Origin: Nitrospirota bacterium
GTDB lineage: Bacteria > Nitrospirota > UBA9217
Reading direction: 5' to 3'
DNA: 64,000 nt
Assembly (NCBI GenBank): GCA_963754875.1
Contig: CAVWHO010000016.1
Coordinates: forward strand, 70,286 to 134,285
The position numbers and the translations under genes were made by a program. Positions 7,009-47,357 of the stretch are shown here, piece by piece (position 1 is the first letter of the stretch; each line of letters begins with the position of its first letter). A model generated the notes under the pieces. It did no database searches, was not told the origin of the DNA, and was given only the letters and a program-made list of their open reading frames with translations.

Positions 7009-7053
7009 AAAAACATGCCCGATATACGCTTGACCGTGTACCTTGATTGATCG

Positions 7054-21651: not shown

Positions 21652-21727
21652 GGAGACCTCCTGTTTGCAGTAACGGGAAACGACGCCTGCCCGCACGAAA
21701 TCACGATCCTCGGGCGATTTTCTGCTC

Positions 21728-21757
21728 CCCTGATTTTCAGGGTACCGGCATTACGAG
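21728..21757. promoter_or_regulatory. Near-perfect palindrome gtaccggcat-tacgag-tatgccggtaa between the divergent cytochrome c and giant ETF genes
   Basis: 9-bp arms taccggcat and atgccggta. It lies in the shared intergenic region and is a candidate operator. Confidence 0.4.
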
Positions 21758-30225: not shown

Positions 30226-30876
30226 CTACTGCCCCCCGCGCACAGGCCATACATAGAAATATCTGGTCTTATTGAGGTATTTCATGTTGCCCCAGACCAT
30301 GTCGACGGCCCATGCCATGGCTGCATCGTTGGTATACGAGGTAGACGACCAATAGAAGTCGCTGGCCCGTACATTGGTGAATCCCTGGCTATTCAGCCAT
30401 TCGGCGGTATTGGTCTGAGCGTTGTTAACAAGGCTTCCTATCTCCTTGAAGTTCGGCAAGCGCCAGTCATTATGTCCCAGGTATTTTTCAGCATTCAGTT
30501 TTGCCACATAATCAAGGGCATGCTGCCATGTAACCGCTCCGACGAATGTCTGGCTTTCTTTCCAATTAGGATCTCTTGTCTGCATAAGATTGCCGTTGGG
30601 CGCCCAGACAAGCCCCGTTAGATTGTCGGTAACCGTGGTATCAGCGTTTGCGGTAAACCGCTGAGTCGGCCAGGCAGCGCCTTTTTGCAGTTCTCCATCC
30701 TGCCCTGTATTCGTACAGGATATGACGTTGCCTGAGCTGTCATAACAAGTCGTCTGGCCGGTCTTGGGAAGTCTGATTGCGGTATCCTTACTTCCACCAT
30801 TGCCTACACTGACAATACCCGTCACTATAATAACCGGCAATAATGCCGCAAACCAAAAGCCCTGTCGTACTTTCAT
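30226..30876 (-). CDS. Secreted DUF1566 (Lcl C-terminal domain) protein
   Basis: 216 aa with a signal or TM start. HNDWRLPNFKEIGSLV and YWSSTSY...AWAVDM match the DUF1566/Lcl C-terminal domain signature. Confidence 0.65.
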   Translation of the reverse strand: MKVRQGFWFAALLPVIIVTGIVSVGNGGSKDTAIRLPKTGQTTCYDSSGNVISCTNTGQDGELQKGAAWPTQRFTANADTTVTDNLTGLVWAPNGNLMQTRDPNWKESQTFVGAVTWQHALDYVAKLNAEKYLGHNDWRLPNFKEIGSLVNNAQTNTAEWLNSQGFTNVRASDFYWSSTSYTNDAAMAWAVDMVWGNMKYLNKTRYFYVWPVRGGQ

Positions 30877-32247: not shown

Positions 32248-34020
32248 TTATTCCACCACATCCAGCTTGATCGACAGTTCTTTGAGCTGGGCCTGAGTCA
32301 CGCGTGACGGCGCCTCGGTCATGACGCAGACGGCCTTTTGTGTTTTGGGGAAGGCAATCACGTCTCGGATCGACTGCGCGCCCGTAAGGATCGCCGTGAT
32401 CCGATCGAGACCGAAGGCCAAGCCGCCGTGGGGCGGTGCGCCGTATTCGAGCGCTTCGAGCAGGAACCCGAACTTTTTCCTTGCATCTTCTTCTGCAATG
32501 TTCAGCAGGCCGAACATCTGTGACTGGACCTCCGACCGGTGGATACGGATGCTGCCGCCGCCGATCTCCGAGCCGTTCAACACGATATCATAGGCCTTGG
32601 CCCGTACCTTGAGCGGATCGGTTTTCATGAATTCGAAGTCTTCGTCCTTCGGCGCGGTAAAAGGATGGTGCATGGCGTCGTACCGCTTTTCATCGGCGTT
32701 CCATTCCACGAGCGGGAAGTCGGTGACCCAGAGGAAGTCCAGTTTGCTTTCGTCAATGAGGCCCAAGCGCTTAGCCACGAGCAGCCGCAGATAGCCCAGC
32801 GTCTCGGCAACAATCTTGGGGCTGTCGGCGATGAACATCATGAGGTCGCCGGGCTTTGCAGCAAGCCGCTCGGCCATGGATTTGACCTGGCCGTCTTTGA
32901 AAAATTTGGCGATCGGCGACTCAAACCCCGATGCGGTCACTTTGATCCAGGCAAGTCCTTTTGCTCCGAATACCTTTGCCTCATTCGTGAGGTCGTCCAC
33001 TTCCTTGCGCGAAAGACCGGCCATGCCGGGAGCGGCAAACCCCTTTACCTTGCCGCCGAGTTCCACGGCCTGAAGAAAGACCTTGAAGGCGGAAGCCTTG
33101 GCAATGTCGGAGATGTCCTTGAGTTCCAGCCCGAAACGCGTGTCCGGCTTGTCTGAGCCGTAGCGGTCCATGGCCACGTGATAGGGAAGACGTGGGAACG
33201 GCACGGCGATCTCGATGCCTTTCACCTGCCGGACAACTTCAGCAACGAGCTTTTCCATGAGCGCAATGACATCGTCTTCGTCGATGAACGACATCTCAAG
33301 ATCGATCTGCGTAAACTCGGGCTGCCGGTCCGCGCGAAGGTCCTCATCGCGGAAGCACTTGACGATCTGGTAATAACGTTCGAAGCCGGCCACCATCAGG
33401 ATCTGCTTGAAGAGCTGGGGCGACTGCGGAAGCGCGAAGAACATGCCGGGATTCACCCTGCTCGGAACAAGATAGTCCCGGGCGCCTTCGGGCGTGCTCT
33501 TCGTGAGGAAGGGTGTTTCGATGTCTACGAAGCCGTTGCTGTCGAGGAAGCGCCTCACGGTCTGGGTGATCTGATGGCGCGTGATCAGGACCTTTTGCAG
33601 GCTCGGCCGCCGCAAGTCAAGATAGCGGTACTTGAGCCTCAGCATCTCTGCGACATCTGTTTCGTCTTCGATCATGAAAGGAGGTGTCTTTGCCTGATTC
33701 AGGACCGTCAAATCGGTCACGAGCACTTCGATCTCGCCGGTCGGGAGCTTGGAGTTCACGGTATTGCCCGGCCGGGGCGCAACAGCGCCCGTGACAGCGA
33801 TCACGTATTCGCTCCTGATATCATGGGCCAAAGCATGGGCATTCGATGCCGTTTCGGGGTTGAAGACCACTTGCGTGATGCCGCCCCGGTCCCTAAGGTC
33901 CACGAAGATGAGTCCGCCGTGGTCTCGTCTCGTGTGCACCCATCCCATGAGCGTCACGACAGCAGCCACGTCTTTTTTTGTCAGTTCACCGCAGGTATGC
34001 GTTTTTTTTTGTGCTTTCAC
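32248..34020 (-). CDS. aspS: Aspartyl-tRNA synthetase
   Basis: Class II aaRS motifs and an anticodon-binding OB fold ([12 protein letters not shown]...[27 protein letters not shown]). The C-terminal GGGSIRIH...[22 protein letters not shown] is typical of AspRS. The start is set at the GTG (VKAQKK) at 34020, which is preceded by GAGGGG. The ORF continues upstream without a stop to 34236. Confidence 0.88.
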
Positions 34021-34299
34021 GGGCCTGATTCCCCTCTTTCGTCGTTTCAAAAACAGGCTGGATAATAGCATCTCATACAGCACAAAGTCAAGCGCCCAAT
34101 GCAGGGGAACAGCGCCACGCGCCCCTGAAATCGCTGTCTGTCTTGAACGGGTTATGCTATAGTAAAAGACATGTCCGCCCGGATTGTCGCACTCGTGCTT
34201 GCATTCTTGCTCCACGGTTCTGCGGGGCAGTCCCATTCCCAGCCAAAGTCCCTTATACTGAAGCTCGACTATATAGCGGAAAAGACGGACTTAAAATAG

Positions 34300-35047
34300 C
34301 GGTCCCTCCCACGGTCGGGGAAATGCCGAAACTCGGTCTCGCGCTGGCTGGCGGCGGAGCAAAGGCCGCTGCATCGACCGAGGGACTGAAGGTCCTGGAC
34401 AAAGAAGGTATCCCCGTGTCCTTCATTGCGGGGACAAGCATGAGTGCGGGCCCGTCGACACTTGAGACACGCGTGTCTGACCCCACTCCGGTATTCTTGT
34501 CAAGGGGTCCTACGAGATGGCGCAGCCCGGCTGTGGGAGCACCAATGCCTTTACGAAAGCATCAGTGTATGCTCAAGGGAACCTGCCGCTGGGAGATCGG
34601 CATACGATCATCATGGAAGGCTCCGGCAGGGTCGGCAGCGGCGAACTGCCGTACCAGGAAAAGTTCGGGATCGGCGGGGCAGACTATCTATTGGGATTTC
34701 CTCTCATGGGATACCAGCGCAGGGAATTCGTAGGTGCCGATGAGCTGAGGTTCTCGCTGTCCTACCGGTGGAAGATCAAGGACTACCAGCTCAAGGCCGT
34801 GAAGGCCCTCTGCCTGAACGTTGCCTGACAAGAGGCAAGTGTCTGGAACAGCAGGAGCTCGATGTCGTCCGGTAATTTGTGGAACGGGGTCGGCATCGGC
34901 CTGCACGCAGATACCATTATCGGGCCCGTTAAGCTCGATTACGCAGTCGGGGGACACGACCGTTACGCGGTCTATTTTTCAGCGGGATTCGATTTTTTGA
35001 AAGGGGGCTGCGAGCACACCTGCTCCCGGCACTCTGTACCGCTGTAA
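34300..35047 (+). pseudogene. Remnant of a PlpD-like patatin-Omp85 (type Vd) gene: a patatin N-terminal fragment plus an Omp85/BamA C-terminal barrel end, internally deleted, frameshifted, and carrying an in-frame TGA
   Basis: Frame 0: KLGLALAGGGAKAAASTEGLKVLDKEGIPVSFIAGTSMSAG is the patatin GGGxK...GTSxG start. Frame 2: SGELPYQEKFGIGGADYLLGFPLMGYQRREFVGADELRFSLSYRW...TGA(34826)...WNGVGIGLHADTIIGPVKLDYAVGG is the terminal part of an Omp85 beta-barrel. The whole locus is only about 750 bp, whereas an intact PlpD is about 2.2 kb. Confidence 0.45.
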
Positions 35048-35112
35048 TCATGCCTACCTGAACCGGTTCTGCTGAAGAGACGTCGAGGCACCGGTAACTC
35101 TGTGGCATTATC

Positions 35113-35466
35113 TTATGTTAGATAGCGCAGGTATTTTTTCAGCCTGTCCATTTCATGCCTTGCAAAGCATTCTTCCGCTCCCGCATCGATCAGACTTGCC
35201 CGGTCCTCGGTTGCAGCATGATTCGTGAATATGATAATCCGCGCTGCGGGGTTGTTCCTTTTCATACGTTTGAGCCGATTGAAGTAATCCAGACAGAACA
35301 TCCGCATATCGAGGAGAACGGCGATGTCCGTCGCGTTTCCAGGGAAAACGGTCTCGTTGAACGCCCCTTGATCTGCGACATCAACCGAGTGTCCTTCGTC
35401 TTCAAGCTCGTATTTGAGAACACTCGCGAGATTTTTTTCGATGTCTGCAATAAGTATCCGTGCCAT
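35113..35466 (-). CDS. Single-domain CheY-like response regulator
   Basis: 117 aa. ARILIADIE...DIAVLLDMRM...IIIFTNH has the receiver-fold pattern with the phospho-acceptor Asp in LLD. Confidence 0.65.
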   Translation of the reverse strand: MARILIADIEKNLASVLKYELEDEGHSVDVADQGAFNETVFPGNATDIAVLLDMRMFCLDYFNRLKRMKRNNPAARIIIFTNHAATEDRASLIDAGAEECFARHEMDRLKKYLRYLT

Positions 35467-35634
35467 AGTTCCTGTTCATTCTTGACGATGCGAGGGAGTA
35501 TTTTTCAATCTGGCATCGCTGCTCTTTTTGTCCAGACTGTTCCGTTCCTCTTTTACAAAGCTTTCCAGTTCCCAATAGAGATGCTTCAGTTTACCGAGTG
35601 CTGCAGACAGAGCGCATCAAGGTGATGCCGCTCG

Positions 35635-35952
35635 TCAGCCGCCCTTCAATCTATGGAAAAGACAGGCGTACAGCTGGAAGTTCGATCCCTCTTCTTCTCG
35701 TACCTTTAAATAAAAATCACATTGCTCGCAATGCTCGAACTTCATACCGCACATTCCCTGGACCTTGCCGCTGCACAAGGTGCCCGCGATCATCCAGCAG
35801 GCTCTTCCACTGTTTTTCCCGCCGTGCACGCCATTCAGACGGGTATCCGTCGTTGCCGGGCAAACGCCCGACACGGCGGCGCGTTCACCACCGGGTTCCC
35901 TTCCACAACCCTTCAATTCCCAGCAATTCAATTTTGTTATGACATCGTCCAC
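35635..35952 (-). CDS. Uncharacterised Cys-rich small protein, paralog A
   Basis: 105 aa. NCWELKGCGREPGG...GVCP...LNGVHGGKNSGRACWMIAGTLCSGK...HCEQCDF is about 50% identical over the core to the adjacent ORF and shares an ordered set of eight Cys. Confidence 0.5.
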   Translation of the reverse strand: MDDVITKLNCWELKGCGREPGGERAAVSGVCPATTDTRLNGVHGGKNSGRACWMIAGTLCSGKVQGMCGMKFEHCEQCDFYLKVREEEGSNFQLYACLFHRLKGG

Positions 35953-35993
35953 GATTTCACCGCGTCCGGAAAAAAGGTCTCCTCTGAGGCTTT

Positions 35994-36356
35994 CTATTTC
36001 TTGGGCTTCTCCTGGGGAGTGGCCGGAGCTATTGATGGAAATTTTTGTTTTTCAAGGCACCGCTCTATCCCGAGACGCGTGACCGAAAAACCCAAGGCTG
36101 AGGGTTCTTCTTCCTGTTTCACTCGTGTCATGAATTCACAGCGCCAGCAATTATGTAATTTCTGCGCATAGGTGCCTTCAATTTTTCCGCCGCACAGGGA
36201 TCCCGCCACGACCCAGCATGCCCTTCCTGCGTTCTGGCCGCCGTGGGCGCCGCCCAAGTCCTGAGATGTGGACACCGGGCAGATGCCGAGTTCTTGCGCT
36301 TTATGGCCGCCAGGCTGACGTCCGCAATTCTTGAATTCCCAGCAATTCTTTTTCAT
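35994..36356 (-). CDS. Uncharacterised Cys-rich small protein, paralog B
   Basis: 120 aa. MKKNCWEFKNCGRQPGG...GICP...LGGAHGGQNAGRACWVVAGSLCGGK...NCWRCEF. A sigma-54-type promoter lies upstream (see the next feature). Confidence 0.5.
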   Translation of the reverse strand: MKKNCWEFKNCGRQPGGHKAQELGICPVSTSQDLGGAHGGQNAGRACWVVAGSLCGGKIEGTYAQKLHNCWRCEFMTRVKQEEEPSALGFSVTRLGIERCLEKQKFPSIAPATPQEKPKK

Positions 36357-36509
36357 ACCGTCCCTCCTGTATACCGTTCTCGATAATGCTCATCCCGTAT
36401 CGCGATGAGGTGGCTGGTCCCATATTCTGTAAGACATTGCAGCAACCACGGAAAAACGTTTTTCCGTTTCCGACAGATTGACACCGAGGAATGCGCTGCA
36501 TGAATGTCT

Positions 36510-36525
36510 AGCAAAAATATTGCCA
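36510..36525 (-). promoter_or_regulatory. Sigma-54 (-24/-12) promoter TGGCAA-N5-TTGCT, reading toward Cys-rich protein B
   Basis: The minus strand reads gagaTGGCAAtatttTTGCTagac. GG and GC are separated by 10 nt as in the consensus TGGCAC-N5-TTGCW. It lies about 150 nt upstream of the ATG. The palindrome GGAAAAACGTTTTTCC (36449-36466) lies in the predicted 5' UTR. Confidence 0.55.
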
Positions 36526-36824
36526 TCTCTAACCAATTGTTTTTTAAATTTTTAAGCAGTGAGAGAGCTGAAATGCCGGGCAATTTATCTTGGCATGACG
36601 GCAGAATGCCTGATTGAGAAGATGCGAAGGACAAAAAAATATTCAGGGTTTTACAATCACGGGTCCTGATGTTGACCGCCTCAACCCAGCATCCGTTTTA
36701 TTCGCTCTTTCTGCTTCTATTTACACCACGCCTTATCGGGCATTCTGTCTTCCAGATAGGGAGAGATTCCCGACTGTGCAGCGTGCTCGCATCACTATAC
36801 TATAAAAAATCAGTGCGTTAGCAA

Positions 36825-36840
36825 TGGCAGCATTTATGCT
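36825..36840 (+). promoter_or_regulatory. Sigma-54-type promoter TGGCAG-N5-ATGCT upstream of cytochrome c7
   Basis: aaTGGCAGcatttATGCTagg with correct GG-N10-GC spacing. It ends 27 nt before the ATG at 36868. Confidence 0.45.
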
Positions 36841-36867
36841 AGGAGAAGACGGCGGGAGGGAGTGGGC

Positions 36868-37185
36868 ATGAAAAAATATATTTTTATGATCGAGCTTATT
36901 TCACTTTTTCTCACACCAACGGCATGGTCAAAGATCGGAGGCGGAGATATAACGTTCCTGGTGAAAGATGCGGGGAATGTTGTATACAACCATGATTCCC
37001 ATGTCGATAAATTGGGGCTGGGGTGTTCAGCGTGTCACTACGGTATTTTTGCCCGGGCCGCACATAACATCAGGGATAAAGCGACCATGACAGAGATGCA
37101 GAATGGGAAGTCTTGCGGCAGTTGCCATAACGGACGAAGAGCATTCGGGGTAGATAAAAACTGCTCACGCTGCCATCATAAATGA
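36868..37185 (+). CDS. Periplasmic triheme cytochrome c7 (PpcA family)
   Basis: Signal peptide, then GDITFLVKDAGNVVYNHDSHVDKLGLGCSACHYG...MQNGKSCGSCHNGRRAFGVDKNCSRCHHK. It has three CxxCH motifs in a mature protein of about 80 aa, with the same spacing pattern as Geobacter PpcA. The start is set at the ATG at 36868, preceded by GGGAGGG. The ORF track uses a GTG two codons earlier. Confidence 0.8.
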   Translation: MKKYIFMIELISLFLTPTAWSKIGGGDITFLVKDAGNVVYNHDSHVDKLGLGCSACHYGIFARAAHNIRDKATMTEMQNGKSCGSCHNGRRAFGVDKNCSRCHHK

Positions 37186-37408
37186 CAACGTGTCAGCAGG
37201 AAAGTAACATCCGTAATTCCCTGTAGACGGAGCGGCGGAGCTGCATTTCTCACCGAGGGGACACATGACCCTGTGAAGTGAGCGTTGCGACGTGAGGCGG
37301 TATTCGGGAAAATAAATTTTTGCTAGAATGTCGGCAGGTGCGTCAAGCATAAAAAAGCCAGTTCTGCACTTTGCAAATCTTACCTCTTAAGTTGAAAGAT
37401 CATGATAC

Positions 37409-40084
37409 ATGGAAAAAATTAAAAGAATAACCATCTCGGGCAAGCGGTATGATTTTTATCTGTTGTCGGCATGGACCGCGGTAATTGCTTTTGCTTTTAT
37501 TTTTTCTGCTTATTATTATCATCAAAACATGCTCGGCCAGGCCGCAATCGAAGCGCGAACACACTTGGATCTGGATATGGAATACAGGTCTTTTATAACA
37601 ACATTAGGAGGTGTGTATGTTCCCGCTTCGGTTGTTCGCCCGAATCCATTCCTCGTTGCCCGGAATAAAAATATCACGACAACCGAGGGAAATAAACTGA
37701 CGCTTGTTAACTCGGCATATATGACGAGATTGTTATTCGACACAGACAATACAAGTACGGGACAGCCCGCTATCAGCAAAATTACCAGTTTAAAGCCCAT
37801 TAATCCGGGCAACAAGCCGGACGCCTGGGAAAGGGACGCCTTGCTCTCCTTCGAGAAAGGTCGACAGGAGGCCCGTGAAGTCAAAACAATAAATGGAGAA
37901 CCCTTTTTGAGACTCATGCGACCGCTCGTCACCGAAAGAAGATGCCTCATGTGTCATGCATACCAGGGGTATAAGGACGGAGATATCCGCGGCGGCATCA
38001 GCGTGGCCGTTCCGTTAAAACAGTATCTGAAAACAGAATCAAGAACAAGAAGCAAATTATTTATTATCGATATTTTCGTTTGGCTTATCGGATGCGCAGG
38101 GATCGTCGGCTTTTCCAGGGTCAGGCAAGAACAGGAAAAAGATCTTGTGGAAAGCGAATGGAAGTTCAGGACTGTATCAGAATCAACTCATGACTGGGAG
38201 TATTGGGCTGCTGAAGATGGGTCAATAGCATATATGTCCCCTTCCAGCACGATCATCACCGGTTACAGCCCCGAGGAGTTCTTAACGAAGCCCGACCTTC
38301 TCATGGAAATCATGCATGATGAAGACAGAGCTACCTTTAGTTGTCACTTGAGTGATGTGAGGGCCAAGCAACACCGGGAAATAGAAATCAGAATTATCAC
38401 AAAGGACGGCCATCTGAAATGGATTGCTCATTCATGTTCTCCTCTCTATAAGAAGGAAAGATTCCTCGGAAGGCGTGTAAACAACAGGGACATTACCGAA
38501 CGCAAACAGGCCGAGGAGGCCCTGATCGAACAGGAGGGGTTTTCAGCAAATCTTATCGGGCACTCGGCAACGGCAACTTTCGTTTTGGATAAAAACCACA
38601 AGATCATGCTCTGGAATAGGGCATGCGAAGAACTTACCGGGCTTCGTGAATCCCAGATGATAGATACCGATGACCAGTGGAAACCCTTCTACAGCTACAA
38701 GAGGCCCACCATCGCAGATTTCATTATTGACAACGATTTCGAAGAGCTTTTTAAATATTATGACAATTATACAAAATCACCACTCCTCCCCCAGGGAATC
38801 AAGGCCGAAGGCTGGTATCGAGATCTCGGTGGCAAGGACAGATACATCATCTTTGAGGCGTCTCCGATACATAGCAGCAAAGGAAAGCTGATAGCCGCGA
38901 TTGAGACACTGCAGGATATAACGGAAAACAAAAAACTTGAGGAACAACTTCTTCAGTCCCAGAAGCTAGACGCCATCGGTAAACTCGCTGGCGGCGTGGC
39001 CCACGACTTTAATAATATACTGACCGCTATCATGGGGTTTTCTCATCTCACGCTTTCGAAACTGCCTGAAGACGATCCGTTGAGAGGCAACATGGATCAA
39101 ATTCTCCTCGCGTCGAACCGGGCAGTCGAGCTTACCCAGGGTCTTCTTTCTTTCAGCAGGAAACGTATTATGAACCCTGCGCCGCACAGCCTGACTGACA
39201 TTGTCGTGAAACTGAAAAAATTTTTGCTGCGGTTGATCAGGGAGGACATACAGCTGCTTATTACGCTGTCGGAGGAGGAACTGACTGTTTTCGTTGACAG
39301 CGGCCAGATTGAGCAGGTGCTGATGAACCTCGTTACAAATGCAAGAGATGCCCTGCCGACGGGTGGGCAAATAGCTATCCGAACTGAGTCTGCATACTTG
39401 GATGAGTCCTTTGCCGAGACGCATGGGTATGGGGAGGCGGGCAGATATGCCGTTCTCATTGTTTCTGATACAGGCAAGGGAATGGATGCAAAAACGAGAG
39501 ATAGGATATTCGAGCCTTTTTTTACAACAAAAGAACAGGGGAAAGGGACAGGTCTCGGCCTCGCAGTAGTATACGGCATCATCAAGCAGCATAATGGATT
39601 TATCAACGTCTATAGCGAGCCGGGGAAAGGTACGTCGTTTAAAATCTATCTGCCTCAATTGAGAGGGAGCCACAAGGTAGAGCAAAGAGAGGTGCAATCC
39701 AGCACAATACAAGGCGGCTCAGAGACGGTACTCATAGCCGAGGACGACGCAGTGTTGAGGGAACTATCGTCCACAATACTGCGCAATCACGGATACCACG
39801 TGATCGAGGCGGTTGACGGCGAAGACGTAGTGGTCAAATTCAACGAAAACAAGGGTCGCGTGAAATTGATTATCTTCGACGTCATTATGCCGAAGAAGAA
39901 CGGTTTAGAAGCGTATCAGGATATTCGGAGGATAGACCAAGCGGTGAAAGCAATTTTCGTCAGTGGTTATGCGGAAGACTTAATGAATAAAGAAGGTCTG
40001 CTTGAGCCCGGCATCAATTTCATTTCTAAACCCATTATCCCATCAACGTTGTTGCAGAATGTGAGAAAAGTGTTGACTTCGTAA
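37409..40084 (+). CDS. Hybrid sensor histidine kinase with a periplasmic c-type-haem (CxxCH) Tll0287/DUF3365-like sensor domain, PAS domains, HisKA, HATPase_c and a C-terminal receiver
   Basis: 891 aa. TM, then ...PGNKPDAWERDALLSFEKGRQEAREVKTINGEPFLRLMRPLVTERRCLMCHAYQGYKDGDIRGGISVAVPL matches the DUF3365 haem-binding sensor pattern. HDFNNIL is the H-box. The ATPase G-boxes are GKGMD...GTGLGLAVV. The C-terminal VLIAEDDAVLREL...LIIFDVIMP...KP is a receiver. Confidence 0.8.
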   Translation: MEKIKRITISGKRYDFYLLSAWTAVIAFAFIFSAYYYHQNMLGQAAIEARTHLDLDMEYRSFITTLGGVYVPASVVRPNPFLVARNKNITTTEGNKLTLVNSAYMTRLLFDTDNTSTGQPAISKITSLKPINPGNKPDAWERDALLSFEKGRQEAREVKTINGEPFLRLMRPLVTERRCLMCHAYQGYKDGDIRGGISVAVPLKQYLKTESRTRSKLFIIDIFVWLIGCAGIVGFSRVRQEQEKDLVESEWKFRTVSESTHDWEYWAAEDGSIAYMSPSSTIITGYSPEEFLTKPDLLMEIMHDEDRATFSCHLSDVRAKQHREIEIRIITKDGHLKWIAHSCSPLYKKERFLGRRVNNRDITERKQAEEALIEQEGFSANLIGHSATATFVLDKNHKIMLWNRACEELTGLRESQMIDTDDQWKPFYSYKRPTIADFIIDNDFEELFKYYDNYTKSPLLPQGIKAEGWYRDLGGKDRYIIFEASPIHSSKGKLIAAIETLQDITENKKLEEQLLQSQKLDAIGKLAGGVAHDFNNILTAIMGFSHLTLSKLPEDDPLRGNMDQILLASNRAVELTQGLLSFSRKRIMNPAPHSLTDIVVKLKKFLLRLIREDIQLLITLSEEELTVFVDSGQIEQVLMNLVTNARDALPTGGQIAIRTESAYLDESFAETHGYGEAGRYAVLIVSDTGKGMDAKTRDRIFEPFFTTKEQGKGTGLGLAVVYGIIKQHNGFINVYSEPGKGTSFKIYLPQLRGSHKVEQREVQSSTIQGGSETVLIAEDDAVLRELSSTILRNHGYHVIEAVDGEDVVVKFNENKGRVKLIIFDVIMPKKNGLEAYQDIRRIDQAVKAIFVSGYAEDLMNKEGLLEPGINFISKPIIPSTLLQNVRKVLTS

Positions 40085-40123
40085 GCCGGCAGGCGCCCTT
40101 AATAGAGTTACCGTTGAATAATT

Positions 40124-40138
40124 CGGCAGAGGGATTGC
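40124..40138 (+). promoter_or_regulatory. Sigma-54-type promoter CGGCAG-N5-TTGCG upstream of the haem-sensor chemoreceptor gene
   Basis: attCGGCAGagggaTTGCGatt with GG-N10-GC spacing, about 55 nt upstream of the start. Confidence 0.45.
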
Positions 40139-40195
40139 GATTCCACGCTTCTCAAACCGAACACTTACTACAGCTGAAAAGCGAGGAGTTGAACC

Positions 40196-41803
40196 GTGAT
40201 AATGAAAAAAACTATTAACGGCAATATGTCATTGTCTTCGAAAATTGGTGCCCCCATTGTTGTCGCTGTATTTATTGGTATTGCCATTTCCGTACTTGTT
40301 ACTGGCTATACAATGAAATTAATTGTTATTCAGGAGGTGGAGAAATCGACGCTGGAAACAACGCGAGATACGGTTCTGAATTCCCTTACAACAATGATGG
40401 TGAGTAATGATATTCAAAATTCAAAGAAATTATTCATCGACCAGATGAAGAATATTGTCGATCTGAAAGTAATCAGGTCAGATAAATTAAACGAACAATT
40501 TGGCACGGTTGAAAAAAGTTATACAAAAGATGATATTCAAGCGGAAGTACTCAGCAAAGGAGTAGAGAAAATAGTCCTTGAAGGTGAGTCTATAAGAGGG
40601 GTTTATCCCTATATTGCCAAGCGGAATATTATGGGGAGAAACTGCCTGAGCTGTCACAATGTGCCCGAAGGGACTGTCCTGGCGGCTGTGGACATAACAG
40701 TACCCCTCGGCGCCTCCTATGCGAGAATTAAAAAATTACAGTGGCTATTTGTCCTTTTGGGTCTTGCAGGAATTTTGACGCTCTTGTTTATTGTCCGTTA
40801 CATAATGAAAGTCATGCTGCGGCCCCTCCACGAAGTTATAAGCAAAATAAAGGAAGTTTCAACGGGCGATCTTACCGTACATTTCCCTTATCATAATAAT
40901 GACGAAATAGGGGTTCTCTCACGAAACATGGAAACAATGACGCAGTCGATTTCCTTATTAATCACGCGTATTCTGACAACATCCTCAAAAGTTGTTGATT
41001 CTGTCGATGCTCTTCAGCAAAGCGGAGACCGTCTGTTTACTAGCGCTAAAAACCAAGCCGTGCAGGCTCAACATATTGCGTCAGCGTCGGAAGAGATGAG
41101 CCTGACGATCGGAGACATAGCAAAAAATTCTTCCGTAGCGGCATCAATTACTTCAAACGCCATGAACATGGCGAACGGAGGAAAATCTGTCGCCGAAGGG
41201 GCCGTGCAAATAATCACTAATGTGGATGCCTGCAGTGCTGAGTTGCAGCACCTCATTAATGATTTGAATGAAAGCGCTATGGATATAGGCAACATTGTAA
41301 CTATTATCAATGGAATTGCCGATCAGACCAATTTGCTTGCGTTAAATGCATCGGTCGAAGCAGCGCATGCCGGCGATAAGGGCCGTGGTTTTGCTGTTGT
41401 TGCTGATGAAGTCCGCAAATTGGCCGAAAAAACGATTAATGCTACAATAGAAATATCCAGCAAAACAAAAGCAGTACAGCAAAAAACAAACCAAGCTACT
41501 ATATCGATGGAAAGTTCCTCGAAGGAAGTAAGTAAAGCCACTACACATATGAAGAGCGTGGGAGAACAATTACACCACATCGTGGATGCTGTTCAAAAAG
41601 CCAAGGACGAAATAATATCCATTGCTACAGCTGTTGAGGAACAGTCCTCGGTTGCCGAGAATGTCACGAAAAACATAGCAATAACATCTAATACCGCTCA
41701 AAGCATGGAAGATCTGGCAAACAATATTTCACATCAGGTTAATGCTTTAACCAAAGTAGTTACCGAGATGAGAGAATATTCCTCTGAGTTCAAAACTGCC
41801 TAA
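40196..41803 (+). CDS. Methyl-accepting chemotaxis protein whose periplasmic domain carries a CxxCH haem-binding motif
   Basis: 535 aa with two TM helices. Its periplasmic domain carries [23 protein letters not shown], and it has a HAMP domain. The MCP signalling domain carries the highly conserved [34 protein letters not shown]. Haem-containing chemoreceptors of this kind are known in Geobacter. Confidence 0.8.
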
Positions 41804-41849
41804 GGCGAACTGATAATGTTGGACCGCTGAAACAGATCACCGTTAGAGG

Positions 41850-44679
41850 TCACTGTCGCGGCAGCGTGATGGAAAAGGTCGTTCCCCTCCCCAATTCGGT
41901 CGTAACGCGGATATCGCCATGATGGTCAACAAGTATTTTTTTTGTAATCGCAAGTCCGAGGCCGGTCCCCCCGTTGGCAGCTTTCGTCGTATAGAAGGGG
42001 TCAAAGATCCTATTGATCTGCTCCGGCAATATGCCGCCTCCCGTATCGCTGATCCTGATGTTGACCGCCTCCTCCTCAGCAACCGTCTCGATGGCCAAGG
42101 CGCCTTTGTCGTCCATGGCGTCGAGGCCGTTTGTAATCACCGTGAGAAAGACCTGCCTCAGTTCCCCTTCGTTCCCATAGACGGTAAGGTTCCCTTGTGT
42201 ATAGCCTCTCACCACCTCGACTTCTTTTAATCTGCCTTGAAGGCTGATGACCTCCAGTGTCCTGTCGATCATCTCATGGACATCGATCGTCTTTTTGTCC
42301 GGCGAGCCTTTCCGTACGAACGAAAGCATGCCTGTGGTTATATTTTTGCACCGCGCAATCTCTTCTTCGATGATCTCCAGATATTTCTTGAACAGCGCCG
42401 GCTCAAAGTGTCCCTGGTTAACCCGGTTCAAGAGACCTTCCGCACATCCCCTGATCGCGGCCAACGGGTTGTTGATCTCATGGGCGATGCTCGCCGCCAT
42501 CTGTCCGAGAGATGCCAACCGCTCGTTCATGATGAACCGCATCTCTCGTTCCCGTTCCTGCGTCACGTCTCTTACGATATTGATGGTCCCGCCGGGGGCC
42601 CCATCGGGGTTCAGGTAAGGAAAGTGCGTGGTCACCAACGTTCTTTTATTTATCGGGTCCACCTGTTGGACATCAGCCGCGATGCCTGTTTCCTGTATCC
42701 TATGGTGCGGACAATCAGTATAGGGATCACGTGATTCGTGGACCAGTTCGTAGCATTTCTGATTGAGAATTGACGAAAAGCTCTTCCCAACATACGCAGC
42801 AAAGGCCTTGTTCGCCTTGATAATCCTGTATTCCCTGTCGGTGATGCAGATGGGGTCCTGGATATTATCGAAAGTATCACTCCATTCTTTCTCGGAACGG
42901 CTGACCTGAGCGACCAGATACTGAAGCTCCATGACGAACTTCTCCCGTTCCATCTCCATCCGCTTTCGCTGTGAAATATCGACCACCGCGATCCGGATCT
43001 GACCTGCCTTATCGTCGACATTATCGGCGATCGTACTCTGGAGTTGGGCGTAAAATGCCGGGGCATTTCTCGGTACTATCCTCAACTCGCAGGTCTGTAA
43101 TGCTTGGCTCCTGAATGTTTCCTTACGATGGCCTTCGTAAACTGCAAGATCGCCCTTTTCGATAAAAGGGGTAAAAGATTCCCCTATCAACAGATGCCTG
43201 GTTACGCCCACCATATTGGCCCCGGTAAGATTCGCTTCCCGGATCCGACCGCTTGCATCAATCAAGAAATACCCGAACCGGAGAGAAATCAAAGAGGTCC
43301 CTATATCTGGCGCGGGAGGATTCAAGCTCCACCCGCGCGCGGTGCAACGTTTTTTCCGCCTGTTTGCGCTCAGAGATATCGCGTACGATCGCCACCATGT
43401 ATCGCTTCCCCCCCTCGGCAACAGGCATGACGTTGATTTCAACGGGGAAGACACTGCCGTCTTTTCGCCGATGCAAACTCTCGATCATAAACGATCGACG
43501 CTTGAGGACGTCTTCGCACCTTTGTTTCCATGAGTGATCGTCCGGAATATTTAGGTCGAAGTCCCTTACCGACAAAGACAGCACTTCCGGGCGGGTGTAA
43601 CCATACCTCTCGCAGACTTTCTCGTTGCAGTCCGAAAAACGGCCGGTTTCGTGATCAGTTACGAATATGCAATCGTTTGACCGGTCGATAAGCGCGCGAA
43701 ACAGCCTCAGGTCCTTCTCAGCCTGCTTCCGGCTGGTAATGTCCCTCGCTACTTCAACAGCCGCGACGACCTCCCCCGACACATCGCGCACCGGAGATGC
43801 AATAAGTTCGTACGTTACTTCGCCCCGTTGTTCGATCAGGCCAGTTCGCTCCACGATATGGCGCTTCCCATCCTGGAAGGACAGCACAAGGGGGCAATCT
43901 TCACAGACAGCGTCCTTCTTCCGGTACGCCTTGTAGCAATACTCGCCGACATGGTCTCCGCCGACAAGTTCCCTGTGGAGCCGATTCTGATAAATGACCC
44001 TGAAATCCCTGCCCTGCATGCTGACGCCATCGGCTATAGCCACTATGATAGCCTCGGACTTGTTTTTTTCTTCTACGGTTTTTGCCAGCGCCCGACGCAA
44101 CGTTTCTTCCGCCTGTTTGCGCTCGGAGATGTCCACAACGGCAATTCGGATCAGACCGTTCGCCTTGCCATCCTGTTCGACAGCCAAGCAGTGCAACTGA
44201 GCAAAAAACGGGGAACCGCTCTTTCTTTTGAGTTTAACTTCGCAAGGTTGCTGGTACTTCTTCTCGATGACTTCGGCAAAATGAGAGAGGAACACCCGCT
44301 GTTCTTTCCTGTCCGCGAGAAAAACGGAGAAGGGTCCGTTGATCACTTGCAGCCGGTTGACGCCGAGCAGGGTCGCACAGGCGAGGTTAATTTCCTTGAT
44401 CGCGCCGCGGGCATCGAGCGCAAGATAGCCGACAGGCGCAAAATCGTACAAATCGGCCAACTTGTCGCGGGACGATTCCAGTGCCTCCCTCGTACGTCTG
44501 AGCTCTTCGTTCTGCATTTCGAGCTCGATCTGGTGAGTTCCGAGCTCATTGACGAGCTGTTTTAAATCATAGGTCGTGAGCTTGCTCAAGCCTTTCGTCT
44601 GTTCACCGAGCTTTTTCTTCGCCTTCCGTCGAAGGGCGGCGAGGGTTTCCGATTTTGAACTGGATTTTTTCGTAGGCAT
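41850..44679 (-). pseudogene. Large multi-PAS sensor histidine kinase split into two ORFs by a 1-nt insertion near 43274-43280
   Basis: ORF 43258-44679 encodes a coiled-coil plus about 4 PAS domains ending ...RARYRDLFDFSPV. ORF 41850-43454 continues in the +1 frame (GYFLIDASGRIREANLTG...) through more PAS, HisKA (HEINNPLAAIRG) and HATPase_c (DTGGGI...GTGLGLAI). Deleting the c in ccggttcgggtat joins them. The 5' end is set at the internal ATG at 44679, which overlaps the upstream regulator gene by 18 bp. Confidence 0.65.
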
Positions 44680-44695
44680 TCTTCTCACCGAATCC

Positions 44696-46012
44696 TCATT
44701 CTTCCACCCCGTAGCTTGCCAGCTTCCGGTACAAGGTCTTCGGGTCAATGCCGAGCAGTTCCGCCGCCTTGCCCCGCTGTCCTGCCGATGCGTCGAGGAC
44801 GCGCAGGATGTGCTCCCTCTCGACGTCTTCGAGCCGCGTGGAGGCTGCCTTCGGGCCCGTGACAAGATCGAGAGGGAGGTCGTAGGGTTCAATCACATCG
44901 CTGCGCGACAGGAGGAGCGTCCGGTGCACGACGTTCTGCAGTTCCCGCACGTTTCCGGGCCACGGGTATGCTGTGAGGACGCGGAGCGCCGACTCGCTGA
45001 ACCGCTTTTGCTTGAAAGCGGCGTCACGCTTCGTAAAGTAATCGATCAACGCCCGGATGTCCTCCTTGCGCTCCCGCAAGGGCGCAATCGGCACGGTGAG
45101 CGCCGTGACCCGGTAATACAGGTCTTGCCTGAAGGCCCCTTTCCGGATTTCTTCCTTAAGGTCCTTGTTCGAAGCAGCAAGTATCCTGATGTCCACCTTC
45201 TGCTCACGGGTGCCGCCGAGCCTGAAGAAACTCCCAGTTTCAATGACCCGGAGCAGCTTTATCTGGAGCGCAAGGGGCATGTCACCGATCTCATCGAGGA
45301 AGAGCGTCCCGCTGTTCGCGACTTCCAGGAGTCCGGGTTTTCGTGCTGAAGCGCCGGTAAATGCACCTTTTTCAAAACCGAACAATTCGCTCTCGATCAT
45401 GTTCTCGGGAATCGCCCCGCAGTTGATCGGGACAAAGGGACCGCCGGCGCGCTTCGACTCCCGGTGGATGCTCGCTGCAATCAGTTCTTTGCCCACGCCG
45501 CTCTCGCCGGTAATGAGCACGGGGAAATCGGATTGAGCGACCTTTTTCGCGGTCTCCTGCAATTCCTGCATTACGCGACTCGCGGCAATAAGGTGTTTCC
45601 GTTCCGTCTGCCGCTGAATTTGCGTTTTTAAAAGAATATTCTCGCTGCGGAGCTTCTTTTTTTCGTAGGCTTTATCGATGATCGGTCCAAGTTCTTCCAG
45701 GCGGAATGGCTTCGACAGGTAATCATAGGCCCCGAGTTTCATGGCCTCGACGGCAGTCGATATGGTTGCGTTCGCTGTCAGCACGATCACTTCGGTGGGA
45801 ATATCGAGAGACTTTATTTTTTTTAGGACATCGATGCCCACGAGTCCGGGCATGTTCAGATCGAGAAGGAGAACATCATATTCGTCCTGATCGAGCAGTT
45901 CCAGAGCCCGCCGTCCGTTTTCCACCTCATCTACATGAGTGTGATCGTTCGAAAGCTCCGTACGCAACACCTGCCTGATGTTCTTTTCATCGTCGGCAAC
46001 GAGCAGTTTCAT
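44696..46012 (-). CDS. Sigma-54-dependent response regulator (NtrC family: receiver, AAA+ sigma-54 activator, Fis-type HTH)
   Basis: 438 aa. KLLVADDEKNIRQVL...DVLLLDLNMPG is the receiver. GESGVGKELIAASIH...GAFTGA...GTLFLDEIGDMP, GSFFRLGG and the ESELFG motif mark the AAA+ sigma-54 activator. The C-terminal EREHILRVLDASAGQRGKAAELLGIDPKTLYRKL is the HTH. Confidence 0.9.
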   Translation of the reverse strand: MKLLVADDEKNIRQVLRTELSNDHTHVDEVENGRRALELLDQDEYDVLLLDLNMPGLVGIDVLKKIKSLDIPTEVIVLTANATISTAVEAMKLGAYDYLSKPFRLEELGPIIDKAYEKKKLRSENILLKTQIQRQTERKHLIAASRVMQELQETAKKVAQSDFPVLITGESGVGKELIAASIHRESKRAGGPFVPINCGAIPENMIESELFGFEKGAFTGASARKPGLLEVANSGTLFLDEIGDMPLALQIKLLRVIETGSFFRLGGTREQKVDIRILAASNKDLKEEIRKGAFRQDLYYRVTALTVPIAPLRERKEDIRALIDYFTKRDAAFKQKRFSESALRVLTAYPWPGNVRELQNVVHRTLLLSRSDVIEPYDLPLDLVTGPKAASTRLEDVEREHILRVLDASAGQRGKAAELLGIDPKTLYRKLASYGVEE

Positions 46013-46243
46013 GACAGCTTGCCCCCGAAAACCATATCAACCGTGCTGGATAATCACGACAAGCCATTACGGCTCAATTAAAATAGTATACAACAGGACC
46101 GGTCTCTATGCAAGAGCGACCAGATTGTGCGACCAGATTGTGGAATCTGCCGTTGAGGGAATAGGTAATTTAAAAAAAGGGGGGGGAAGATGGGGGAGGT
46201 CAAAAAAAGACCGTCCAATTGAACACGCTTGCGAGGGAATGTT

Positions 46244-46489
46244 TTATGACTTTTTGGCGGCCTTCAAAAGTTTTTCGAGTTTATCTGATCCGACGCACTC
46301 TTTGGCGTAGGCGCACCACTCGATACAGGACGTGCCGATGGGCCGTGCATTCAAGTGACCGCACTTCTTGCACTCGGTCTCGGGCTCGTCGCTCCAGATC
46401 TCAATCTTCTCGCCGCACTTCTGGCACCGGATGTCTTCCGGTTTCGGCGACCGTATTTCCGCGCTTCCTGGACAGCCTTCTTTAAACAT
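46244..46489 (-). CDS. Small zinc-ribbon-like Cys-rich hypothetical protein
   Basis: 81 aa. CQKCGEKI...ECKKCGH forms a CxxC-x16-CxxC ribbon. An extra CIEWCAYAKEC is present. No family is recognised. Confidence 0.35.
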   Translation of the reverse strand: MFKEGCPGSAEIRSPKPEDIRCQKCGEKIEIWSDEPETECKKCGHLNARPIGTSCIEWCAYAKECVGSDKLEKLLKAAKKS

Positions 46490-46550
46490 GGTCTTACTCT
46501 ACACGACTTGCATCACTACGGCTATGATCTACATCATACCTTCCGTGAGC

Positions 46551-47357
46551 TTAATTCTTGACCGTCTCTTTTACGGCATCGATGATCTCGATTTTAAAAT
46601 TATAGGGAATGATTGCCCGGTCTACTTCAACCGGAATAAAAAGATTGAACGACTTTCCCTTCAGACCCGCTGCAACATCACTGTCGAGCGGGAACAGCGG
46701 GTGAATGTCGTATCCCCTTCTTTGCTGGGAAAGAAACACATTGGTCACCGGGATCACGGCTTCCTGTATCGAGCTCTTTGCCAGGACGATCTGATCAGGG
46801 AACGGGTTATTCCTGTCCGGGAAACGGACCGTTGAAGGCATGATCCGGTGCGTCTGGTTGTTCACATCACTGTACTCGGAACGTTCCCACAAGATCCTGA
46901 CATCGCGATCGCTTCGGTTGTCGAAGCGCATGTTGAACGACTGCTCCCCGACTGTGAAAGCGATCGCAATGACCCTGTCCCGGAACCGCAGTTCATTCGA
47001 TGCCACGGGGTCCGTCATCCGGAATTTCAAGCCATACTTCGCGAGATTCTGGATAATCTTCTCGAGCCTGATATTGAGCGTCTCTCCCGTTTTGACGTCC
47101 TGGAGAGGGACGACCCTCGGTTTATAATTTTCTTTCTGTACTTCGAGAATCGCTTTCGACGCAAGCGCGGGGTCGGTCGGCACGTCGGCCGTTACCGTTG
47201 CCGGTGAGCGATACGTCTGTTCCTTCAAGTCCTTACCGGAGACGACCCTGATGACCGCATCCGGCGGATCGGCAAACACTTTGAAGTTCTTCGTGACCGT
47301 GCTTGAGCAACCAGCTGCAAGGACCGCTGCAAGGGCCACCACAACATATCGTCTCAT
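46551..47357 (-). CDS. Hypothetical lipoprotein
   Basis: 268 aa with a signal peptide and lipobox (ALAAVLAAGCSS). No recognisable domain. Confidence 0.5.
   Translation of the reverse strand: MRRYVVVALAAVLAAGCSSTVTKNFKVFADPPDAVIRVVSGKDLKEQTYRSPATVTADVPTDPALASKAILEVQKENYKPRVVPLQDVKTGETLNIRLEKIIQNLAKYGLKFRMTDPVASNELRFRDRVIAIAFTVGEQSFNMRFDNRSDRDVRILWERSEYSDVNNQTHRIMPSTVRFPDRNNPFPDQIVLAKSSIQEAVIPVTNVFLSQQRRGYDIHPLFPLDSDVAAGLKGKSFNLFIPVEVDRAIIPYNFKIEIIDAVKETVKN

Follow-up and report, generated by a model that had tools for sequence, protein, structure and literature searches.

In sigma-54-dependent regulons of the NtrB/NtrC type, such as AtoSC, ZraSR and DctBD, an activator composed of a receiver (REC), an AAA+ domain with GAFTGA and an HTH_8 domain is encoded beside its kinase, and paired palindromes, separated by two helical turns, sit roughly 55-90 bp ahead of a GG-N10-GC promoter element, with a site resembling that of integration host factor (IHF) in between. 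Here we describe a locus with the same components in a 64,000-nucleotide stretch of DNA, hereafter the window, from a Nitrospirota bacterium (GTDB lineage Bacteria; Nitrospirota; UBA9217; assembly GCA_963754875.1, contig CAVWHO010000016.1, positions 70,286 to 134,285 of the forward strand). We consider it reasonably probable that window positions 35113-46012 form a two-tier sigma-54-dependent signalling island, in which one activator would govern small cysteine-rich proteins of the two-CW family on one side and a periplasmic cytochrome with haem-c sensors on the other. The island differs from the described regulons in that its two promoters are mirror-imaged, each with its own pair of sites, and to our knowledge the motif GGGCA-N3-TGCCC and the regulated genes (two-CW proteins and haem sensors) match no described regulon. 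Gene and domain identities, the promoter and palindrome architecture and the conserved neighbourhoods were read directly; the protein that binds the palindromes, the operon extents, the cofactors and the signals are given below as predictions.

The regulated genes have described counterparts of their own. The c7 domains of Geobacter PpcA-E and of the GSU1996-like 'nanowire' proteins (TIGR04257) carry three CxxCH motifs in about 80 mature residues behind a signal peptide, and WhiB-like proteins are small, cytoplasmic, rich in invariant Cys, present as many paralogues and tied to transcriptional signalling. The sensor domains of the haem methyl-accepting chemotaxis proteins (MCPs) GSU0582 and GSU0935 have been discussed as redox sensors. 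A preprint of 2026 reclassifies DUF3365/Tll0287 domains as haem-c Cache domains ('sCache_heme'), in which CXXCH is 99% conserved, and places the GSU0582 and GSU0935 sensors in the same DUF3365 superfamily (PMC12889525). According to this work, a stand-alone family member with Cys/His ligation behaves like a redox protein, and a HAMP-linked member from P. azotoformans without the axial Cys bound nitric oxide (NO) tightly, with a slow off-rate, and formed no stable O2 complex (PMC12889525).

Domain identities were assigned by Pfam and NCBIfam profile scans of the open reading frames (ORFs) of the window and their translations, and the genes of the island are as follows:

35113-35466, minus strand: atypical receiver of 117 residues (PF00072, E 2.8e-11)
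35635-35952, minus strand: two-CW domain protein B of 105 residues (NF045718, 106 bits, cutoff 35)
35994-36356, minus strand: two-CW domain protein A of 120 residues (NF045718, 101 bits, cutoff 35)
36862-37185, plus strand: c7-type triheme cytochrome (PF14522, TIGR04257)
37409-40084, plus strand: hybrid histidine kinase of 891 residues (PF11845, two PAS, HisKA, HATPase, REC)
40196-41803, plus strand: methyl-accepting chemotaxis protein of 535 residues (HAMP, MCPsignal)
41850-44649, minus strand: cytoplasmic multi-PAS histidine kinase (Pfam PAS, HisKA, HATPase)
44696-46012, minus strand: NtrC-family sigma-54 activator (PF00158, PF00072, PF02954)

The original prediction, made from the letters of the DNA, had described 35113-41803 as a redox-sensing island served by three sigma-54 promoters, and it was borne out in part: its gene list stands, and the third promoter and the family assignment of the MCP sensor do not. 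The triheme cytochrome c7 (PF14522, E 2.7e-17; three CxxCH), the hybrid kinase whose periplasmic Tll0287/DUF3365 domain carries CLMCH (PF11845, E 1.6e-17) and the NtrC-type activator just downstream (receiver, sigma-54 AAA+ with GAFTGA, HTH_8) are all present as named. Other labels had to be narrowed: 'PpcA-like' holds for the cytochrome at the level of the domain family and fails at that of the Geobacter c7 equivalog; the MCP has the HAMP and MCPsignal domains and the CLSCH motif, and its sensor falls short of the Tll0287 profile; the two 'unusual' Cys-rich proteins are members of a large signalling-domain family, two-CW; and the 'CheY-like' receiver matches PF00072 without the second Mg-binding Asp and with Arg in place of the conserved Lys. 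An Rfam scan of 34000-47000 gave only a sub-threshold FMN match (E 0.48). The haem-c kinase, the haem-c chemoreceptor and the c7 are new members of already recognised families; what is new is the assembly, together with the link to the uncharacterised two-CW domain, and this is worth a modest follow-up.

The evidence for common control comes from the 505-bp spacer between two-CW-A and the c7 (36357-36861), where two strong sigma-54 sites point away from each other. The search used the consensus TGGCAC-N5-TTGCW and a crude position weight matrix (PWM) scan of the whole 64-kb window, and the promoter features are:

36510-36525, minus strand: sigma-54 -24/-12 element TGGCAATATTTTTGCT of the two-CW operon (14.4 bits, the best in the window)
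36530-36542, minus strand: IHF-like site AAACAATTGGTTA directly upstream of the two-CW -24 element (consensus match)
36578-36611, no strand assigned: putative activator-site pair of the two-CW promoter, GGGCAATTTATCT at 36578-36590 and CGGCAGAATGCCT at 36599-36611 (PWM of related loci)
36738-36771, no strand assigned: putative activator-site pair of the c7 promoter, GGGCATTCTGTCT at 36738-36750 and GGGAGAGATTCCC at 36759-36771 (PWM and reading)
36808-36820, plus strand: IHF-like site AATCAGTGCGTTA directly upstream of the c7 -24 element (consensus match)
36825-36840, plus strand: sigma-54 -24/-12 element TGGCAGCATTTATGCT of the c7 unit (11.5 bits, fifth in the window)
40124-40139, plus strand: weak sigma-54-like match CGGCAGAGGGATTGCG, 56 nucleotides upstream of the MCP (9.0 bits)

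The element TGGCAATATTTTTGCT has one mismatch to the consensus and lies 153 nucleotides upstream of the ATG of two-CW-A, and AAACAATTGGTTA has one mismatch to WATCAA-N4-TTR, the IHF consensus. Both palindrome pairs have a spacing of 21 bp between centres, at 53 bp from the -24 element on the two-CW side and at 54 bp on the c7 side. The palindrome PWM was built from 14 related loci only, with the window left out; its top match in the 64-kb window was GGGCATTCTGTCT (15.0 bits), with GGGCAATTTATCT ranking fifth (11.6 bits) and CGGCAGAATGCCT eleventh (9.8 bits), and GGGAGAGATTCCC, the second palindrome on the c7 side, was read from the sequence and not derived from the PWM. Both sides follow one design, tandem GGGCA-N3-TGCCC palindromes, an IHF-like site and a -24/-12 element, in mirror-image copies, and the two promoter regions are a 38-nucleotide inverted repeat of each other (76% matched), inside which AATCAGTGCGTTA falls. 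Of the three sigma-54 promoters first claimed, only these two are convincing. The third, upstream of the MCP and probably CGGCAGAGGGATTGCG, was rejected, being a background-level site whose 9.0 bits are reached by 22 positions in the window, with no tandem palindromes or activator sites upstream of it; upstream of the receiver and of the hybrid kinase, the PWM scan gave no sigma-54 site above 5 bits. From these patterns, one sigma-54 activator appears to switch on both back-to-back gene sets.

The same architecture recurs at related loci. A scan of one genome per species gave at least 535 two-CW loci, nearly all in metagenome-assembled genomes (MAGs) of Nitrospirota/Thermodesulfovibrionales and often several per genome, and 80 loci were fetched for comparison (referred to by L numbers). 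About half of the 80 have a tandem two-CW pair, and the triad of two-CW-A, two-CW-B and receiver is repeated in L001, L002, L004, and L020. In 22 of the 80 loci the first two-CW gene is preceded by a sigma-54 site of at least 11.4 bits, at 39-102 nucleotides from the start in 21 of them and at 229 nucleotides in L027, and an A-rich ...TCAA-N4-TTA block directly upstream of the -24 element is common to the related promoters, both window promoters included. Tandem GGGCA-N3-TGCCC palindromes were found in 14 Nitrospirota loci with a spacing of 19-23 bp (21 bp in 8/14), with orthologues of the activator and the PAS kinase usually lying upstream. In 12/80 loci an activator whose AAA+ domain is 62-77% identical is located upstream on the same strand, namely in 11/22 of the sigma-54-type loci and 1/58 of the others (Fisher p = 7e-7, with loci that are not independent). 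In L001, L004, and L020 the order is activator, PAS kinase, two-CW-A, two-CW-B, atypical receiver and hybrid kinase (GAF/PAS-HisKA-HATPase-REC), and L020 also has an MCP, of the four-helix-bundle type. The conserved sigma-54 element was thus found at 22 two-CW loci and one c7 homologue, together with activator and palindromes.

The activator (PF00158, E 1.3e-69; PF00072, E 4.8e-30; PF02954, E 1.5e-13) is by every feature an NtrC-family enhancer-binding protein: its receiver has the canonical D-D-D-T-K set (DD, D51, T79, K101), its AAA+ domain has GAFTGA, both read from the translation and alignment, and HTH_8 follows. The kinase encoded directly after the activator in L001, L020, L040, and L062 is 51-62% identical over its C-terminal 366-410 residues to the window PAS kinase, and in several related loci the PAS kinase ends right before the palindromes. 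This gives a conserved order of activator, PAS kinase, palindromes with the sigma-54 promoter, and two-CW genes; the window is a variant in which the c7-kinase-MCP block, in inverted orientation, separates the PAS kinase from the two-CW promoter. On this synteny, the multi-PAS kinase is the probable cognate kinase of the activator. Because the activator/PAS-kinase pair is conserved elsewhere, the activator most likely stands at the top of the hierarchy and is not an output of the haem kinase, and the haem sensors would be regulated genes. The flow from haem sensing to activator implied at first is thus probably reversed, and the idea of one coherent sigma-54-driven sensing module keeps its co-regulation and loses the direction of control that it implied. 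Co-regulation of the cytoplasmic and periplasmic sensors is well supported at the level of gene and promoter arrangement, because the promoter layout is mirror-imaged, the module genes travel together and the hybrid-kinase subfamily recurs.

We propose that the island works as follows. In the first tier, the multi-PAS kinase (41850-44649) would phosphorylate the adjacent activator (44696-46012), which would bind both palindrome pairs and, with an IHF-like bend between each pair and the -24/-12 element, fire both divergent sigma-54 promoters. The second tier would comprise, leftward, the two cytoplasmic two-CW proteins and probably the degenerate receiver too, and, rightward, the periplasmic c7 followed, probably by read-through, by the hybrid kinase and the chemoreceptor. 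The two-CW domain, with a metal or iron-sulfur (Fe-S) centre, would act as a cytoplasmic input or adaptor module. Both periplasmic sensor domains, each with one predicted covalent c-haem and no axial Cys, would report the ligand or redox state of the haem, NO on the ferrous haem being favoured by analogy, and the co-expressed c7 might keep the sensor haems reduced or couple them to the periplasmic electron pool. The outputs would be a phosphorelay of the hybrid kinase and chemotaxis.

The c7 (PF14522, 62.8 bits, threshold 24.8; TIGR04257, 84.9 bits, cutoff 40, E 3.2e-24) likely starts at the ATG at 36868, and its translation opens with a hydrophobic, signal-peptide-like N-terminus that ends in ...TAWS, followed by KIGG. 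Its haem motifs are CSACH, CGSCH, and CSRCH at 37024-37038, 37114-37128, and 37162-37176 (residues 55-105). It shares with the PpcA-type domains the three CxxCH in about 80 mature residues and the predicted signal peptide; unlike them, it comes from a Nitrospirota-like genome, stands behind a predicted sigma-54 promoter and is no PpcA orthologue (21.3 bits in the Geobacter PpcA-type equivalog NF043011, cutoff 120). A 2.2-kb metagenome contig (L083) has two tandem c7 homologues, at 359-664 and 1179-1490, 46% identical to the window c7, and the second has a 15.6-bit sigma-54 site at 1067-1082 in the same GTTAGCAA(C)TGGCA context as in the window. The palindromes upstream of that promoter are of the TGCA type, not the GGGCA type, which suggests a different activator.

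The hybrid kinase consists of a first transmembrane segment (TM1), the periplasmic Tll0287/DUF3365 domain, a second transmembrane segment (TM2), two PAS domains, HisKA, HATPase and REC. Its sensor alone scores well above the PF11845 threshold (68.3 bits against 24.1, E 1.3e-18, residues 78-202), with CLMCH at 37943-37957 (residues 179-183); it has 240 homologues, and PF11845 was found in all of the best 120 listed. The catalytic residues (H-box AHDFNN, receiver DD/D/S/K) were read from the translation, in line with matches to PF00512, PF02518, and PF00072. The MCP has TM1, a periplasmic domain of about 140 residues with CLSCH at 40643-40657, TM2, HAMP (PF00672, E 1.5e-10) and the signalling domain (PF00015, E 1.4e-42), the two transmembrane segments being seen as hydrophobic stretches. 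Its sensor stays below the Tll0287 Pfam threshold (14.8 bits against 24.1, E 0.039, residues 110-158 only), and hhalign against 25 relatives of the kinase sensor gave a probability of 95.1% (E 3e-8) over 71 columns, covering residues 119-195 only. The aligned half runs strand, strand, CxxCH, strand, TM2, and the N-terminal 80 residues were unaligned. Only 2 homologues of the MCP sensor were present in 5.8 billion sequences, and searches of the PDB by sequence and by profile gave no relative. On these comparisons the MCP sensor is best described as a divergent or reduced relative that shares only the haem-binding half of the Tll0287/DUF3365 domain.

Set against known Tll0287/DUF3365 members, the window domain differs in that it is part of a hybrid kinase containing two PAS domains, whose gene follows a sigma-54 promoter and neighbours a c7. 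With the NO-binding 'Cluster 2' member of P. azotoformans, the kinase sensor shares the CXXCH, the extracytoplasmic position, the fusion to signalling domains and the lack of an axial Cys. The MCP sensor is, like those of GSU0582 and GSU0935 (PDB 3B42 / 3B47; PF21563), a periplasmic sensor of about 135-140 residues with a single predicted c-haem. Apart from the common superfamily set out in the preprint, direct sequence similarity to this pair is weak: the kinase sensor reached 21 bits against the PF21563 cutoff of 27 and found only 3b47 in the PDB (E 1.9), and the MCP sensor gave no match at all, so this is a resemblance and no demonstrated orthology.

Neither window sensor has a Cys outside its CxxCH, as read from the translations, and both therefore resemble the NO-binding type. 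By analogy with the described members, the redox state or electron-acceptor availability named in the original prediction is one of two live readings of the signal, and NO is the other. That the haem domains sense redox potential and not a gas, with the c7 feeding electrons and Fe(II)/Fe(III) setting the activity of kinase and MCP, is a real if minority possibility: the sensors share their predicted promoter with a dedicated triheme cytochrome, the bacterium appears to belong to an anaerobic Nitrospirota lineage, and GSU0582 and GSU0935, of the same family, are the redox candidates mentioned above. Opposed to this, the only direct comparison ties redox behaviour to stand-alone Cys/His members and NO to the signalling-linked one, the extra Cys is absent from both window sensors, and the pairing of c7 and sensor is not conserved elsewhere (L082, L083). 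Given that the cytochrome is read as co-expressed, the haem block is a natural test case for NO versus redox poise as the signal of signalling-type DUF3365 domains.

On the other side of the spacer, the two-CW proteins, which have no signal peptide, belong to a large family. Among 1.84 billion cluster representatives, the two-CW profile matched 1586 proteins at E<=1e-3, of which 939 reached E<=1e-10; counted as clusters at 50% identity, the family numbers at least 1586. Across 153 domains in 148 representatives, seven Cys (positions 6, 12, 27, 48, 56, 71, 74) are at least 93% and two Trp at least 95% conserved, giving the pattern C-x5-C-x14-C-x20-C-x7-C-x14-C-x2-C with two Cys-Trp pairs, and the domain of about 80 residues is conserved along its whole length. 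Two-CW-A has 640 homologue clusters, with 66-90% identity to it in the best 120 listed, the handful with a named source being from Nitrospirota MAGs; Cys5, 11, 26, 47, 55, and 73 of two-CW-A are invariant, Cys70 is nearly so, and the protein has the Nitrospirota-type C-terminal tail GFSxTRLGxE. Two-CW-B shares 62-67% identity with its counterpart, the second member of the pair, in L001, L002, L004, and L020, and its translation may actually begin a few codons later.

The 153 domains comprise 95 stand-alone, 37 N-terminal, 19 C-terminal and 2 internal copies, and 58 are therefore within multidomain proteins. The 30 long members carry HATPase_c (11), HisKA (8), PAS (8) and REC (7), as well as cNMP-binding, Pkinase, PP2C, GAF, GGDEF, MCPsignal and nucleotide cyclase domains. 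The clearest case of a two-CW domain in the input position of a phosphorelay kinase is a Nitrospinota protein of 908 residues (L080, 775-3501) with the order two-CW (N-terminal), HisKA, HATPase, REC, REC, Hpt. Since the domain replaces or accompanies sensor domains in histidine kinases, Ser/Thr kinases, PP2C phosphatases, GGDEF proteins and cyclases, we presume that it has an input or adaptor role, probably as a cytoplasmic input domain, and from the dense set of invariant Cys a metal or Fe-S centre is the most likely cofactor. The kinases fused to two-CW were also considered as members of the same core subfamily as the window hybrid kinase, and this was rejected (23-36% identity); the fusion argument therefore holds at the level of the domain family only. 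No match to three two-CW sequences was found in Pfam at E<=10, and a PDB profile search produced no significant match (the top one, to the cluster loop of a plant ferredoxin at E 0.5, is a curiosity only). A literature search for 'two-CW' found nothing relevant, and the family is present in NCBIfam with no Pfam counterpart. The likeness to WhiB-like proteins is a functional analogy only, in small size, cytoplasmic location, dense invariant Cys, many paralogues and the tie to transcriptional signalling; two-CW differs from them in having no sequence or profile similarity, another Cys pattern, a second life as a domain of kinases and cyclases, and a cofactor that is predicted.

A bolder reading of these data, which in our judgement falls a little short of an even call, is that two-CW is a new sensor class: a cytoplasmic seven-cysteine module with a metal or Fe-S centre, amplified in Nitrospirota to many paralogues per genome. 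In one lineage-wide subfamily it would answer to a sigma-54 activator of its own, alongside a degenerate receiver and a particular subfamily of hybrid kinase, and in the window this circuit would have reached into the periplasm through the recruitment of a c7 and two haem-c sensors. Rather unlikely, in our view, is the alternative that two-CW proteins are not sensors and serve as structural zinc adaptors, as negative-feedback partners of the activator in the manner of PspA and PspF, or as precursors of modified peptides. They are small, have no enzymatic domain, would be induced by the very activator that they might regulate and occur as tandem pairs in about half of the loci, and AlphaFold2 yields no stable fold for them without a cofactor, all of which would suit such roles; conservation of the whole 80-residue domain is unlike a peptide precursor, and the terminal position in signalling proteins (58/153 domains), often as the sole non-catalytic domain as in L080, speaks for sensing. 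A zinc-adaptor or feedback role could also coexist with sensing. If the sensor reading of two-CW is true, bacterial signalling gains in it a new class of input module, responding to redox state, gases or metals. With no Pfam family, no solved relative and fusions to most of the major signalling outputs, two-CW is the more useful result of this analysis, and the activator, palindrome motif and sigma-54 promoter make it experimentally approachable in the poorly studied anaerobic Nitrospirota.

The stand-alone receiver lies 168 nucleotides after the two-CW pair and has the receiver fold by its Pfam match (PF00072, 44 bits against 30.2). We aligned it with CheY and with the activator's own receiver: D12, D57, and T87 are kept, D13 is replaced by Ile and K109 by Arg. 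The DD pair is likewise missing from the syntenic receivers in L001, L002, L004, and L020, and that of L001 lacks D57 as well. The window receiver is thus not a canonical phospho-accepting receiver, and judged from these substitutions it is probably degenerate and acts by protein contact and not by ordinary phosphotransfer.

The relation of the haem block to this circuit has to be weighed separately. The GC content of the c7, kinase and MCP genes is 0.42-0.47, compared with 0.54-0.58 for the activator, the PAS kinase and housekeeping neighbours. The closest homologue of the MCP sensor is located in a che cluster (L081), and the closest homologue of the kinase sensor (L082) has no adjacent c7 or MCP. 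The core of the hybrid kinase (residues 500-891) is 49-55% identical over 322-394 residues to hybrid kinases beside two-CW loci (L001, L002, L004, L020, L035, L039, L040, L072) and about 30% identical to the activator-cognate kinases, and its subfamily is enriched at sigma-54-type two-CW loci (6/22 vs 2/58, p = 0.005). By composition and context, the haem block resembles a sensor swap or an insertion specific to this lineage. Most simply read, the lineage possesses a circuit in which activator, two-CW proteins, receiver and hybrid kinase are conserved and an MCP is optional, and the window holds its haem-sensor variant with a c7 added.

An accidental neighbourhood, in which a recent c7-kinase-MCP insertion has no functional tie to the circuit, only the c7 is sigma-54-driven and the kinase and MCP have promoters of their own, we consider unlikely. 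Such an insertion would account for the low GC content, for the separate contexts of the sensor homologues in L081 and L082, for the c7 homologues that stand alone on the short contig L083, one with its own sigma-54 promoter and other upstream sites, and for the 223-nucleotide gap between c7 and kinase. It does not account for the palindromes on the c7 side, which are the motif of the two-CW promoter, include the best match in the window and have the same 21-bp and 53-54 bp geometry, nor for the recurrence of the hybrid-kinase subfamily at sigma-54-type loci, and no terminator-like site was predicted on the plus strand between c7, kinase and MCP. The wiring first proposed, with the haem hybrid kinase driving the activator, periplasmic redox thereby reaching the sigma-54 promoters and the PAS kinase as an accessory, is improbable, for although the haem kinase and activator are two-component proteins within 5 kb and the frameshift in the PAS kinase described below would leave the activator without a neighbouring kinase, L001, L020, L040, L062 and further loci have the activator followed by the PAS-kinase orthologue and no haem kinase, the hybrid kinase has a core of a different subfamily and a receiver of its own, typical of phosphorelays that require an Hpt, and its gene itself lies downstream of a sigma-54 promoter.

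The two-tier island thus remains our preferred interpretation, and several points weigh against it. Every regulatory link in it is drawn from sequence patterns and synteny. The palindromes of the related loci were first picked by eye and then described by the PWM, and many of these loci come from closely related MAGs, so that the counts overstate independent support. A frameshift in the PAS kinase, if real, impairs the first tier. In the second tier, the c7, haem kinase and haem MCP were not found as a unit at the loci of their closest homologues (L081, L082, L083), and the gaps of 223 nucleotides (c7-kinase), 111 nucleotides (kinase-MCP) and 168 nucleotides (two-CW-B-receiver) contain sigma-70-like hexamers and could hold separate promoters. 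Within the island, no gene encodes an Hpt protein or a terminal response regulator to partner the hybrid kinase. AlphaFold2 gave no usable fold for the MCP sensor (3 sequences, pLDDT, the per-residue confidence score, 48.8) or for two-CW-A (20-sequence alignment, pLDDT 49.0), and sensing of NO is extrapolated, by analogy, from a single Pseudomonas protein in a preprint.

The PAS kinase is split by a 1-nucleotide frameshift at about 43266-43281 into the ORFs 43258-44892 and 41850-43454. An apparent extra C (GTTCGGG for the expected GTTGGG) is responsible, and its removal joins '...DFSPV' to 'GYFLIDASG'; in tblastn the homologues align across the two reading frames. This could be a sequencing error or a real pseudogene. 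At 34143-35047 (plus strand), short ORFs in several frames resemble one broken gene, with a patatin-like GGGAK...GTSMS and a weak Omp85 match (E 2e-4); this is a possible second frameshift cluster, consistent with an error-prone assembly.

Further promoter-like and palindromic sequences were seen in the window. A perfect 20-nucleotide palindrome, ACGGAAAAACGTTTTTCCGT, lies at 36448-36467 inside the unusually long 153-nucleotide two-CW leader and could be a protein-binding site; the RNA fold of this leader showed no sign of structure relative to shuffled sequences (z = -0.36). The second-best sigma-54-like match in the window, TGGCACTGATACTGCT at 52036-52051 (plus strand, 14.0 bits), is inside the 5' end of the ftsH ORF (51963-53810) and is probably due to chance. 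More matches to the GGGCA-N3-TGCCC matrix (11.1-12.2 bits) are located at 46012-46024, 30465-30477, and 30516-30528; the latter two are inside an ORF with an Lcl_C domain, and the first adjoins the start codon of the activator, so autoregulation is possible.

Among the related loci, 25 (L005-L032 and others) have another two-CW paralogue pair with a SpoU-type methylase upstream and ftsZ, ftsA, and ddl convergent downstream. A strong sigma-54 site is present in some of these (e.g. L007, L015, L022, L038) and in others there is none, and a further paralogue context is beside a NapH-like ferredoxin. At least some two-CW paralogues are probably outside sigma-54 control, and only one two-CW subfamily belongs to the sigma-54 circuit. 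A two-CW protein of 462 residues (P0242) is annotated at source as 'rhodanese-related sulfurtransferase', which hints at a link of two-CW to sulfur chemistry. In L037, an ORF at 6906-7556 between the activator and a kinase fragment has an N-terminal membrane segment, two CxxCH and no Pfam match, and may be a further sensor of the haem type, connected to a circuit of this kind.

Outside the island, 1.4 kb beyond the activator, 47427-48644 (minus strand) encodes a ChaN-type haem-binding protein (Cofac_haem_bdg, E 2e-65) with a C-terminal PDZ domain, for which a link to the haem supply of the sensors is possible. A small frame at 21427-21750 (minus strand) has a membrane-anchor-like segment and two CxxCH (CIDCH, CLICH), and lies upstream of and divergent from a giant ORF at 21934-29853 (plus strand). 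This uninterrupted ORF of 2639 residues is an unusual fusion: its N-terminal region is of the FAD/NAD oxidoreductase type, the middle and C-terminal domains of acyl-CoA dehydrogenase follow at roughly residues 1680-1900, and the FAD-binding domain of ETF-alpha occupies roughly residues 2507-2588. Over half of it has no Pfam match.

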